Shown here: piece by piece, positions 34,653-64,000 of the stretch
How the letters are laid out: every line of letters starts with the position of its first letter
How positions within the stretch are numbered: position 1 is the stretch's first letter
NCBI GenBank assembly: GCA_040954595.2
Contig: CM082584.2
Span: 13,323,337 to 13,387,336, forward strand
Reading direction: 5' to 3'
DNA: 64,000 bases
From: Balanoglossus misakiensis
Taxonomy: Eukaryota; Animalia; Hemichordata
Translations under genes and position numbers: made by a program
The notes under the pieces: model-generated
Databases searched by the model: none
Seen by the model: only the letters and a program-made list of their open reading frames with translations
What the model was told of the DNA's origin: nothing

Positions 34653-37600
34653 ATGGCTGAAGCAAGAGAAGGTAGGATAATTCTCTAGCTCATGTACACG
34701 TGCATCTAAAAATCGGATATCAAACCAAACTTGGTTTGTTCACTGTATATACTATGTGAAAACTAAAATTTTGACTCATGGTTTGTTTCTTTCGTTTCTC
34801 AGATGACTGGGTAATAACTGATGAGCAAAGAACTCGCTATGACGCTCTTTTTTATAGTCAAAATCCTGTGATTGGTCTACTTACAGGTAGAGTAAATTTG
34901 GTTGTTCACAGCTTTTAATTATTCCACTTTCATTCGAAGTGATGTGGTGTGACCCCCATTGATTTTAGGAGATCAATAAGTTTTGTTGTTTTTGACTTAA
35001 TCCACAGGTGAGAAGGCAAGAGACTTGTTCCTAAAGTCGAAGTTACCATTGCAGACATTGAGTCAAATATGGTACGTTTCACTGATGATGATTTCACATC
35101 CTAAAAAAATCAGTTTCACTTTTTTGTATTCAAGTTTTAATTAGTCTGGAATCCAGACATGGTTTGTTTTTAAGAGCAAGACTGAGTCTGGATTGTAGAC
35201 TAGTTTTAGTTGAGCGCCAAATCTGTAGAGTCTGGGTCACTATATCTTCATATGGAAAGGGGGGGGGGGAGAGCATTCGTTATTAAGCGGGGTTGCGGAA
35301 GGGTGGGGCACATTTCCCAACCTGGCAAATTTCGTGCCACTGTAAGAGTTACATATATTGTGTAAAGACAAACAATATTTTACAGTCTGCAAGGAGTGGG
35401 TGGTTGGGTCCACTGAATATACCTGTGTGTATAATCACCTTTTACCCCAACTACTCAAAGCATTTGCCCCAAGTGACCTCTGGGTCAGGAGCTGCCATTA
35501 TTCACATGGGTGTACAATGATAACAAAAAAGAGATTATCAGCTCAGCAGGAAATTACTGTTTAAAAAAACTAGTGAAGCGTTACTCTAGATATTGTATTG
35601 GTATTTTCTCTTAATCACATTTGGAAATTGCGGAATATTTTCAGAGAATGAGTAGTTAATGAGATGGAGTAATATTGGATGTGAGTGGAATAATAAAATT
35701 ATTTGCAAGGAAAGATAACATGAAATTGTGAATTGAATCAGAAGAGTAACATATGGCTGCAATTTCAATACATTAAGCAAATAATTAGAAAATGTTGAAA
35801 TATGTTATGTAGTACTACCCGATTTGAATGGCCGATTTATTAAACGTATGGTATCTACTTTTCTCCATTTTTTTCTCTCTTTATGATCGTGAAAGGTGTT
35901 TTCAGCTGAATGCAAAATTTCAATGTCTGTAACATTAGTTAAGTAACTAAAAATTCTCACTATTGGCCCTGGACAAATTGTGTGAATTTTTGGCAACTCA
36001 CAGTCCTTCCATCATGGTAATGGAAGAATAGAATGACATGCTATGTGTCATTTGAAAGTTTCTTATCTACAGGATAATGGTCTTGTTCAGTACTACAAAG
36101 GAAAACTACAAAAGAAAATCTTGCCCCTTTCTCTGGATCCTTGATAGACATCAGATTCAATAGTTATACAATTGTGCAGGCAAGACCTGGCACACAATGC
36201 CCACAGGTCACATGTCTGTGCAATAGATGATATGACTATTTCCCTAGGGAACTATAGGCCTTCTATAGTCAGTGTACGGCTTGCAAAACTGTGAATCTCA
36301 CGTTCACATGGTTGAAACATGGAGTTGTTGTTTTATCTGACTTAACTGTCGTCTGTTGAAGGTCCTGTGTTTGATTCTGTTTTACACAATAGATGTCATG
36401 AAAATTTGATCAGGAGATTGCAACCAGATGACTGACATCCTGTTAACATAGATTAATATTTGATAATGTAAAATAGCGATAACTGCAGAAATTTGAAGTA
36501 CAAAATGAGAGAATATGAATAATTTATAAAACCTGCTGCCACAGTAAGATCTGGGTGAATGCAAAACTCTGATTATTTATTGTGTGTGTAAATAAAGAAT
36601 TAATTAACGTCAAATGAATGAAAAGCTGCATTCCTTTGTATGTCAAAGTGAATCACATATGTCCACTGATCAGAGGACATGATATACAAGGTGACACATC
36701 TGTTGCACTTGTTATTGTGAGAACGTACTGATATTTTTGCCAGCCATACTCTTTTAAGTAGCTATTACCATGGCAACCAATAAAGATCAATAGCAGAACT
36801 AAGAGGGGTAGTCTGCTGATATAGATAATGCAAAAATTATATTTATCTGTTTTCATATAATTTCAAACCTTATGGCTGGAAATAGAGTTATTTAAGTGCA
36901 GGCAATAATTGTATTATTGTATTTATGCATAAGAATTCAGAGTTAACCTTTATTTCACCACTAACTGTAATCTGCAGAATGTACAAACTATACTTTGATC
37001 TCAAATTAACCGTAATCAGTAATACAATAGATAAAATGCTAGAAACAGCACATTTTCATTAATAATTAAACAACAGCAACATTTCTGGTTGGAACATTAT
37101 CTCAATATTAGTTGCAGATATATTTTGTATAATAGTGTTGTTTCCCCCAGATATTAATGCATTGTCCCCCATAAAGAATTAACACATCATGATCTAACAG
37201 AATTTGTTGCAAATATGGTACATGTGATTATTGAGCTCTTAGTGGGTAAAACTAAGAATGTTCCCATTGTTACCACCAAATTGTTTTGAATGATTTTATG
37301 TAGACAGAGTAATTCTTAGTGTCTTTGATCACTTTCCAGGAAATTATGTGACATCAACCATGACAATATGCTGGATGCAAATGAGTTTGCCATAGCCATG
37401 CATCTTATGAACTACAAACTGAGAGGAAAGAAGATTCCGCAATCACTGCCGGAATGCTTGATTCCGGAAACCCAACCTGCAAGCGATGTTCCAGTCATGA
37501 CAGGGAAGGAGAGAGAAGCCTATCTTCATGTCTTCAAGAAACATGACAAACTAGAGAGTGGATATCTGAAAGGTAAAAAAAAATGACGGTCATCTTTATT

Positions 37601-61600: not shown

Positions 61601-64000
61601 CAGAAACCGAGATCAAGGACTCTTCCTCAAGTAAAGAGAAACAGTTCACCTCATCAAAGCAGTACCCAATTGAATCCAAGCAGTCCTCCTCAATAAGTGT
61701 CAGTAAAACTATTTTCGAGCGACACCCAAAACCAGCACTGGCAGAAGAAAGTAGAAATTACCATGACAACAGTGCATCCCACACTCCCAAGATGCCTCAG
61801 CAGAAAAAGAAAAAAGAAGTCATCCTCGTGGAACAAGAGCAAATTCAAGAAAGGAATTATGAAGAAGAGGTAATTACATATCAGACCACGATGTTGCATG
61901 TTTGACTATAAAAACTACCTCATCCCCTACACAGTTCCCATCATGCAACGTTCCAATCCATCCATTTATGATAATGCATGGTAGAATTAAACCCCGTGTA
62001 AATTGGAAGATATGTAGGAATCATGGGGAAGGGGGAAGTCAATCTTTCCTCTGTAACTGTCTCTTGTTCTCACTGTACATGTGTATCTAGTATTCCATTA
62101 TAAATGACTAAAATACTTTTAGATATATCTTTCCATGTAGACAGACATTATTTTAACAAATTAATGACTATTTTCCTTTCCATTTTAGCTGATCATCACT
62201 ATTCATTAAAATGTCATTTAAAATCATCATTTAATAACAATTTCGTACTTGGCTGATGATGTGTGGCTGGTTTGTTTTGACAATCTTCATCTCAATTTTA
62301 CATGATTGCAGCATCGTGTGTGTTCTTCTGTGTGTATCATTTCTGTTCTTGTTGTGTGAGCTCATGAAAATGCATGACATGAAATCATCTACCAATCACC
62401 TGTCACCCATTGCTGGCTGCCTTTGCTGTGTGCGTATTGGCTGATCTAACATTAATATTCTTTGTCCTTCCCTATTAACCACTACAGTTTGGTCCAACCC
62501 TGTTGTTTGCATTGATGCGCTTGGACCAAACTATGTGGAAATAGGGGTAGACTGGTTGTGTGTGTATACTTTACAATTTCTTTTTCAGTATTCTGTCAAC
62601 ATTTAGATATGAAACTTGTGCTGGATTTTTTAATGTGCAAATATGAGTAAACTATGTGAAATAGGTAGATAGCTAACTTTTAGATGACAGTAATTTTTGA
62701 GTAAAATCATTACAAATTCCAGCACAAACTGATATAACCAATGTACGTCATACCTTTAACTTTTCTGGATTTCTTTATTCTGATTTTTCTCTTCTTGTTA
62801 ACCTTTTCTAATTGAATTCTGAAGTGGGTTGGTGATTCATTGCTGATTTCTATAGTATGTTTTTATTTGTGGGTAGTAATTGTAATTCAGACATTGCTGC
62901 ATGGAGAATACGAAGGGTGTGTGTCATATTTTGTATCTGTTTTATCCCCATGCAGACAGTCAAACCAGAATACATCCCCTCTGAAACAAGCAGAGAGTAC
63001 CAGACGGAAGAAATCATGGAAGAACCCGAGAAACCGCTGCCACCTCGCAACGAAAGCATCGTCGAACGCGAGATACGACTGCAGCGAGAAAGAGAAGAGG
63101 AACTACAGAAACAGAGACTCAGAGCTGGAATTGGAAAAACTTCTGTTGCAACTGTTGCTGAAGTGAAGAAATCTCCCAAACCAGTTCCTGAAGTGAATGA
63201 CGTTGATGGCGTAGCTGACTCTCCACCAGAGCCCGTGTCAAGGACCGCACAAGCGAGGGCACTGTTCTCCAAACCGACCAAACTGCCAGAGGAGAAGCCT
63301 TCAAAGGAAGTGTATGCAAAATACAGCGTTACTGCTACCGCTGCTGCCACGCCAACCAGGGATGTGAAAATCAACAACTCAACAGACAGTAACTTTGTCA
63401 ACTCACCAAATGAAAATGTTTTATTTGAAACACCAAAGAAAGAAGAAACTCTAGTCGAGGAAGAAAAACCACGAAAGGAGACACCAATTGAGAGAGAAAT
63501 TCGCCTCGCTAGAGAGAAAGAAATGAGCTACAGGAAAGAAAGAGGTAAAGCACTAAGGCTGATGTGAAAAGATATAGTAACCTAAAACAAAGTATTACAT
63601 AGCAGTATCCTCAAGTGTTTTTAATCGTGTAAAGGTTACAAACACAATGATTCAAATTTGAAAGTAACGCGGTTGTTGGATGATGAAAAACATAAAACTA
63701 AAATCTGTTGTAACCATGCATGAACCCACCATCCCATGCAGGACTTCCCTTGATGCCAAGACACGAGAAACAACACATCTCTGAAAGCAAAAAGAAATCG
63801 GACCCAGTAGAAGAAGCACCAAAATCAACCTTCAGTGAGTATCAGCCACCAGAGTCTTCTGCAAAAGACCAATACATGAAACGTGCTGCTGTGTATTACA
63901 TGGAGAAAGAAATGGAAGAGAATCGTCAGAAAGAGGAGGAACTGAAGAAGGAAGGCAAGATACGGAGGTTGTCCACCAGATCTAAAGAAGATGAGGATGA
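34653..64000 (+). CDS. Large multi-exon protein: 2 EH domains + coiled coil + disordered endocytic-motif region + MISP/AKAP2-like repeats (3'-incomplete)
   Basis: Phase-compatible GT-AG exon chain, approx.: 34653-34671, 34803-34886, 35008-35071, 37340-37572, 37686-37834, 38056-38140, 38285-38411, 38622-38749, 39087-39201, 39424-39490, (39892-39942), (40709-40753), 41861-42106, 43605-43900, 59197-61869, 62956-63544, 63742-64000+. EH signatures FLKSKLPLQTLSQIWKLCDINHDNMLDANEFAIAMHL and SKLPVGALAQVWNLSDIDRDGQLDSDEFAIALHL. No stop codon or terminal exon found for the EH part before 59197. The join across the 15-kb intron is inferred from phase only. Confidence 0.72.
43912..44085. mobile_element. 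174-bp palindromic MITE with 8-bp TSD (P-element-like CACAG termini; hAT not excluded)
   Basis: Arms of ~74 bp starting CACAGGCGCTTAAGACGATCGC are reverse complements apart from two substitutions and a 1-nt indel, with an AT-rich ~24-nt spacer. AGTAATGC is duplicated at 43904-43911 and 44086-44093. Confidence 0.9.
49843..49930. mobile_element. Short piggyBac-like MITE relic (~88 bp)
   Basis: (tcaa)CCCTTTCACC ... GGTTGAAAGGG(ttaa): CCC/GGG termini with TTAA-like flanks. A similar TTAACCCTTT start occurs at 38791. Confidence 0.5.
56475..56504. repeat. Poly(C) tract of ~20 nt abutting a poly(A) run; other C/G homopolymers at ~17989 and ~35258
   Basis: Read directly from the sequence. Confidence 0.85.
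59197..61869 (+). CDS. Giant 2.67-kb coding exon of the EH/MISP-like gene (acidic, disordered, with three IxREIR repeats)
   Basis: Lies within the 907-aa ORF. Acceptor caacag at 59196 and donor GAG|gtaatt at 61869, both phase 0. Confidence 0.85.

Follow-up and report, generated by a model that had tools for sequence, protein, structure and literature searches.

In a 2025 account (PMC11887803), the paralemmins are stated to be vertebrate-only and are described as antiparallel coiled coils with the paralemmin motif at the center. An earlier study (PMC3405040) places the MISP and AKAP2 genes after paralemmin genes, records a lone paralemmin-motif exon in amphioxus (B. floridae v1.0 scaffold_302), reports no complete invertebrate paralemmin orthologue and leaves the pairing of paralemmins with MISP/AKAP2 without an origin. 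MISP bundles F-actin, mostly via its C-terminal half, and stabilizes microvillar rootlets (PMC9097542). Invertebrate MISP homologues, including one from Saccoglossus, are already known (PMC3601349 and also PMC9145010), and the passages of PMC3601349 that were consulted mention no EH or paralemmin part for these proteins. We report here a predicted gene of the hemichordate Balanoglossus misakiensis that starts at position 34653 on the forward strand of a stretch of 64,000 nucleotides (assembly GCA_040954595.2, contig CM082584.2, positions 13,323,337 to 13,387,336; hereafter, the window) and extends beyond position 64000, and that encodes two EH domains, a paralemmin-like coiled coil and MISP/AKAP2-type repeats. 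On balance, we favor the interpretation that this is a single scaffold gene, the invertebrate orthologue of the whole paralemmin plus MISP/AKAP2 locus, whose product would tether clathrin-coated pits to cortical actin.

The vertebrate loci PALM2-AKAP2 (Pakap), PALM-MISP and PALM3-MISP3 share with the window gene, in the same order, a paralemmin-type coiled coil, an array of small exons, one very large exon and IEREIR repeats, as well as PRG-like neighbors; the C-terminal WE motif of these loci recurs in Ptychodera flava, Glandiceps and Owenia and would fall beyond the window end here. Unlike these loci, the window gene has two EH domains ahead of the coiled coil and DPF/FxDxF motifs behind it, its paralemmin motif is degenerate, and no paralemmin core, MIF motif, CaaX or protein kinase A (PKA) RII-binding helix was found in it and its EH-bearing relatives (hereafter, EH forms). 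The MISP/AKAP2/MISP3 proteins (the "paralemmin downstream gene" family, with Drosophila CG2556) resemble the EH forms in the repeated motif, an N-terminal block and the C-terminal WE, but in the EH forms this family domain sits at the C-terminal end of a chain roughly 2000 residues long. Intersectin-1/2 have the same succession of two EH domains and a coiled coil, and in PDB the best match, in sequence as in fold, is to intersectin EH1; unlike intersectins, the window gene has a MISP/AKAP2 half, the full-length P. flava orthologue gave no match to SH3, DH, PH or C2, and SH3 domains, of which intersectin has five, were not detected by Pfam in P. flava or in six other EH forms. EPS15 and EPS15L1 likewise combine EH domains, a coiled coil and AP-2 motifs, but the window gene has two EH domains where EPS15 has three, one or two DP[FW] motifs in place of an array, and no match to the ubiquitin-interacting motif (UIM). 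Orthology to intersectin or EPS15 was rejected on the lack of SH3 and UIM, in line with the initial annotation of this DNA, and the database names "calponin homology," "futsch-like" and "titin homolog" were rejected in the absence of the corresponding Pfam matches. Fungal Pan1, an EH scaffold that contacts actin, is a functional parallel.

The exon chain was assembled by hand, starting with the ATG at 34653; the window end cuts the gene, whose 3' part runs past 64000. The resulting model, all on the forward strand, comprises 17 exons and 1743 residues with 0 stops, its 16 introns are all GT-AG with compatible phases, and the full protein is likely to be a scaffold of 1900-2000 residues. It is colinear with a single P. 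flava RefSeq protein (XP_070562775.1, 1982 residues), with 993 of 1641 columns identical (60.5%, a count that includes a wrong-frame tail), and its domain order is EH-EH, coiled coil, DPF, variable region and MISP/AKAP2 repeats. Exon 1 (34653..34671) contains the ATG, encodes residues 1-7 and ends at a GT donor in phase 1. Exons 2-4 (34803-34886, 35008-35071 and 37340-37572; 67-91% identity to P. flava) encode EH domain 1 (residues 8-98) and the start of EH domain 2, the remainder of which is encoded, along with a linker, by exons 5-6 (37686-37835 and 38056-38140); both domains exceed the curated Pfam EH cut-off (E 6.9e-9 and 4.3e-13, respectively), and the pair is 79% identical to that of P. 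flava, the closest relative found. Exons 7-9 (38285-38411, 38622-38749 and 39087-39201) encode the helix-break-helix coiled coil (residues 212-338), and exon 10 (39424..39490) encodes the DPFH block, with DPF at 39457. The small exons 11 (39892-39942, with a DPW) and 12 (40709-40753) are both in phase 1 to 1 and thus skippable, and the P. flava and Glandiceps models lack an equivalent of exon 11. The acidic region of exons 13-14 (41861-42106 and 43605-43900; 49-60% identity to P. flava) includes the FxDxF motif FEDNF at 42019.

Exons 1-14 (34653-43900) join into 570 residues free of stops, and the continuity of the two halves hinges on the following 15.3-kb intron (43901..59196; GT-AG, phase 0 to 0). 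Beyond it, the 2673-bp exon 15 (59197..61869; 48% identity to P. flava over 982 columns) encodes an acidic aromatic region with WEDFF at 59260 and NPF at 59401, a block common to AKAP2 at about 60277-60432, and repeats 1-3, and yields a weak high-scoring segment pair (HSP) with teleost PALM2-AKAP2 (E 0.01). Exon 16 (62956..63544) contains repeats 4 and 5, of the ETPIEREIR type (Anolis MISP, E 7.3e-5), and exon 17 (63742..64000; 73% identity to P. flava), truncated by the window end, a degenerate repeat 6. When the halves were searched separately, the EH exon (E 5.2e-34; 2 matches among 10 candidates) and the repeat exon (E 3.6e-45; 7 matches among 2350 candidates) had the same top match, XP_070562775.1. 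The initial annotation's proposal of a phase-compatible exon chain that encodes two EH domains and a coiled coil and runs without a stop into an acidic region and MISP/AKAP2-type repeats, all in one predicted protein, holds across the predicted 15.3-kb splice.

The six IEREIR-type repeats lie near 61039, 61282, 61423, 63052, 63478 and 63891. A profile of 20 vertebrate MISP/AKAP2 repeats matched the model with an E of 3.1e-10, compared with 2 for the reversed model, and by sequence comparison the repeats of the window gene are MISP/AKAP2 repeats, as the initial annotation had suggested. The Pfam search that it recommended gave a split outcome, with EH above the cut-off twice and exon 16 below it for AKAP2_C (E 0.0042, 16.8 bits against a cut-off of 27); the Haliotis EH form passes that cut-off at 31.7.

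A profile built from seven repeat-family proteins produced 575 matches in 1.84 billion proteins, the best 150 of which were examined, and 26 of the longer ones among these were scanned against Pfam. Two EH domains were found in six of the 26 (Glandiceps, Haliotis, Babylonia, Patella, Argopecten and Owenia) so that, with P. flava, EH forms account for 7 of the 150 matches and for 7 of the 10 that are at least 1500 residues long. A local EH profile, which matches the EH forms from which it was built by construction, detected no further EH form among the 150. The layout of EH domains plus repeats is accordingly found in predicted proteins of two database hemichordates, four mollusks and one annelid, and all EH forms have in common EH-EH, the coiled coil and the DPFH block; no echinoderm, amphioxus or cnidarian was recognized in the 20 of these 150 matches that were named. 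The initial annotation had left open an ancestral or a lineage-specific form and called for a check on whether the fusion recurs. Because it recurs in hemichordates, mollusks and an annelid, the layout appears to be ancient, likely ancestral to bilaterians, and a lineage-specific fusion was rejected.

The N-terminus had been described as EPS15/intersectin-like; beyond such a likeness, its coiled coil is in all likelihood homologous to that of paralemmin. The best BLASTP HSP between the P. flava protein and teleost PALM2-AKAP2 aligns coiled-coil residues 232-348 with PALM2 residues 14-129 (27% identity, pairwise E 2e-6), accompanied by weaker HSPs in the AKAP2 half; the teleost proteins had been fetched via their C-terminus, and Pfam Paralemmin was found in 8 of 16 matches and in 3/3 on rescan. 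The paralemmin side of the comparisons consisted of five teleost PALM2 N-termini only, with no intersectin or EPS15 coiled-coil control. Against these, the window coiled coil reached a Smith-Waterman score of 110, compared with about 60 for shuffles, and none of 1000 shuffles of each of three kinds (plain, heptad-position and heptad-block) attained it; under the same three kinds, the coiled coils of seven of the eight EH forms gave z 6.1-10.7. The highest of 203 background sequences scored 76, as against 110-131 for hemichordates and 87-107 for mollusks. With hhalign, the coiled coil matched PALM2 at 92.1% over 116 columns, with a score of 42.9 against a maximum of 20.5 in column shuffles (0/100 reach it), and a profile from protostomes only still gave 84.5%.

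Structural and exon features agree with these alignments. The coiled coil is of paralemmin size (about 120 residues), with a predicted helix break at the matching place: in AlphaFold2 models, the first helix ends 3 residues past the paralemmin Trp in the P. flava protein and 2 past it in PALM2. In hemichordates, this Trp is in register and R/K-E-x-W is kept in 3/3. Exon 8 (38622-38749; 128 bp, phase 0 to 2), which carries the degenerate paralemmin motif with the Trp codon at 38643, starts at the position aligned with the start of mouse Palm2 exon 4, an exon of 131 bp beginning after residue 42 according to a preprint (bioRxiv 10.64898/2026.08.18.745582), so that the layout of the vertebrate motif exon, whose first motif residue is encoded by the exon before it, is matched in size (131 vs 128 bp), phase (0 to 2) and placement of the intron after the aligned residue. 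The window vs PALM2 alignment has a one-residue gap, and in a catfish model the boundary following the motif exon carries an insertion. The window intron preceding that of the motif exon lies just ahead of the residue aligned to the PALM2 MAE start, around which teleost N-termini diverge. One further intron of vertebrate paralemmins has no counterpart in the window gene. Taken by its sequence, the coiled coil is very probably homologous to paralemmin. As paralemmins are defined in vertebrates, the window gene is not one of them, but it is most likely an orthologue of the locus from which they derive and, given this very probable homology, can be read as a PALM2-AKAP2 orthologue that has EH domains in addition.

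EH pockets recognize NPF motifs, and the pocket Trp is invariant in 8/8 aligned relatives. EH domain 2 matches EPS15 EH2 in PDB with an E of 1.8e-11, and an AlphaFold2 model of the P. flava N-terminus consists of two EH folds and long helices, with intersectin-1 EH1 as the best Foldseek match (root-mean-square deviation 1.2 Å). The DPF of the DPFH block occupies one aligned position in 8/8 EH forms, and FEDNF is present in 3/3 hemichordates; motifs of the types DP[FW] and FXDXF are ligands of the AP-2 alpha appendage (PMC5694535). Separately, the acidic linker is expanded by lineage-specific tandem repeats, consisting of Trp-bearing units in Glandiceps (P0034) and of short units in P. flava and Saccoglossus (P0001 and P0003). 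Two relatives lacking EH domains, P0106 and P0139 (crustacean), nonetheless keep, within their N-terminal region, a block that includes DPF; an NPF also occurs in P0139.

In the simplest working model, the protein would act as a long tether, its N-terminus held at coated pits and its repeats attached to actin of the cortex or of microvilli. Docking of the N-terminus would be due to the EH pockets, through endocytic proteins that carry NPF, and to DPF and FxDxF, through the AP-2 alpha appendage. Like the paralemmin motif, the coiled coil would engage a partner within the spectrin-actin skeleton, and F-actin would be bound and bundled by the C-terminal repeats, as it is by MISP. W54 of Palm1 is required for entry into the spectrin-actin skeleton. 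Such a pit-to-actin tether is, in our estimation, somewhat better than an even prospect. The accompanying history, which we regard as probable, is that vertebrates dropped the EH exons, inserted an internal CaaX terminal exon and quadruplicated the gene, giving rise to four paralemmins each with a MISP/AKAP2; paralemmins would then not be a vertebrate invention, PALM2-AKAP2 would be the ancestral transcript, and the partner of the paralemmin motif could be endocytic or pit-associated. Under this scenario, a lipid anchor would have taken over from EH/AP-2 docking, the locus would have become a paralemmin gene followed by MISP/AKAP2, and the PALM2-AKAP2 read-through would be a relic.

Several results tell against this history and mechanism, some in general and others by favoring one of three rivals. 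The remaining three of the ten relatives that are at least 1500 residues long, two Oratosquilla (crustacean) isoforms and one Lingula model, have no EH domains. The MIF motif and paralemmin core were not found in EH forms, CaaX is absent from the ends of the seven database EH forms (the end of the window gene lies outside the window), and a pattern for the PKA RII-binding helix matched 0/8 EH forms as against 2/2 teleost PALM2-AKAP2 proteins.

One rival retains the gene and its ancestry but places the EH half elsewhere than at clathrin pits, where it would anchor the protein to other NPF partners, either endosomal ones or ones in the spectrin-actin skeleton of the cortex, or else assigns the dominant role to an EH-less isoform from an internal promoter, as with AKAP2. 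The AP-2 motifs are few and singly barely exceed chance (P 0.03-0.4), WEDFF matches WXX[FW]X[DE] incompletely, its sixth position not being acidic, and the DPF stands directly ahead of a predicted helix and so may be structural. Scores of the EH domains are about the same for intersectin, EPS15 and the endosomal EHD1/2, mouse Akap2 has its own start site in the bioRxiv preprint cited above, and many short relatives have no EH domain (92 of the 150 examined matches are below 700 residues). On the other hand, the DPF and FEDNF are conserved as described, the short relatives are probably fragments, and no internal first exon was identified in the window gene. We consider this rival unlikely.

A second rival accepts an EH-MISP gene but regards the coiled coil as generic or intersectin-derived and its paralemmin likeness as compositional, with paralemmins added before MISP/AKAP2 in chordates. 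The published motif KX[KR]XXR[ED]XWL[ML] was not matched in the model, Pfam Paralemmin gave no match at E up to 1 for the P. flava orthologue, and composition-corrected HMMER with a 4-sequence PALM2 profile yielded no significant whole-sequence score (best domain E 0.0085); the same profile matched 0 of the 150 examined repeat-family proteins, and cluster look-ups for 10 MISP-like matches returned 0 paralemmin fusions. The Owenia coiled coil did not rise above shuffles against PALM2, a profile from hemichordates only fell to 41.8% in hhalign, and the Trp and R/K-E-x-W are lost in 5/5 protostome forms. For this stretch of the protein, the sole ESM Atlas lead was Intersectin 2 at 0.76 (lead-level), with no usable match once EH families were skipped, and the intersectin order is also EH-EH-coiled coil. 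Yet the end-to-end colinear match beats heptad-preserving shuffles and natural charged helices, the Trp register, helix break, exon size and phases agree, and the coiled coil is likewise located upstream of MISP/AKAP2 with PRG-like neighbors; an intersectin origin of the EH-coiled-coil unit would, moreover, still be compatible with paralemmin descent from it. This rival is improbable.

The third rival, an EH gene and an adjoining MISP-like gene fused by prediction over the 15-kb intron, is highly unlikely. In its favor, the 43900-59197 splice is a predicted one and the full-length relatives are all gene predictions, six AATAAA sites lie within the intron, and the Saccoglossus and Lingula models comprise the MISP-like half only. 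Against it, single models span both halves in seven species of three phyla, with several isoforms of the joined model in Babylonia, Haliotis, Patella and Argopecten, the Saccoglossus model is labeled partial and comes from a 24-kb contig, the start of the Lingula model coincides with that of the block found after the coiled coil in mollusks, so that it is probably a split model, and read-through of exon 14 meets a stop after 7 codons without a conserved end. A tblastn search of the intron with the P. flava protein disclosed no homologous exon, only a 32-residue minus-strand match (E 8.6), and no CaaX-ending exon was found among 19 phase-0 acceptor candidates there. The EH half and the MISP/AKAP2 half are highly likely to be one gene. 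The intron also harbors, 11 nt inside its start, a miniature inverted-repeat transposable element (43912-44085) with 67-nt arms (97% complementary), flanked by 8-bp direct repeats (43904-43911 and 44086-44093), the length of which suggests a hAT-like element.

Upstream of the gene and head to head with it, 5 kb away, is a PAP2-family gene (28027..29640, minus strand) with altered catalytic motifs that is PRG/PLPPR-like, followed by a second gene in tandem 12 kb upstream (21077..22993, minus strand; Pfam PAP2 E 0.015, under the cut-off); the C1 and C2 motifs are altered in both. We take these two to be PRG-like from the altered motifs and a general likeness. Altered PAP2 catalytic motifs define PLPPR/PRG (PMC9520309), and PMC3405040 places PRG genes within 5 Mb of all four vertebrate paralemmins and infers that PRG had duplicated locally before the genome doublings of vertebrates, an event that the tandem pair may reflect. 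As around vertebrate paralemmins, the MISP/AKAP2 part lies directly downstream and PRG-like genes are nearby. Nested inverted repeats at 33314-33981, about 0.7-1.3 kb upstream of the ATG, are probably another non-autonomous element. Elsewhere in the window, a long single frame (32-3271, minus strand) encodes an N-terminal hydrophobic anchor, a very acidic stem of about 700 residues and a C-terminal sulfotransferase domain. Exons of a flavin adenine dinucleotide-dependent oxidase occupy 4033-5059 (minus strand; Pfam DAO E 5.5e-6), and a V-ATPase proteolipid subunit exon lies at 16205-16582 (plus strand; Pfam ATP-synt_C E 2e-14); we take the former to be sarcosine/pipecolate oxidase-like and the latter to be ATP6V0B-like.

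The initial annotation had raised the possibility of an undescribed adaptor, which does not hold for the MISP-like half, for which invertebrate homologues have been reported (PMC3601349), but may for the EH-bearing form: no description of an EH-bearing or invertebrate paralemmin was found in the literature searched, which comprised few subscription papers; the figures in PMC3405040, together with Fig. S1C in PMC3601349, may bear on the point. Coated pits are reported to control the sites of microvilli growth (PMC12519412). If our interpretation is correct, the gene is a candidate outgroup for the paralemmins, and both the pairing of paralemmins with MISP/AKAP2 and the PALM2-AKAP2 read-through would be explained by the split of one ancestral gene. 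It would also offer a testable lead on the function of paralemmin and MISP, namely that the coated-pit and microvillar-rootlet jobs would share one chain.

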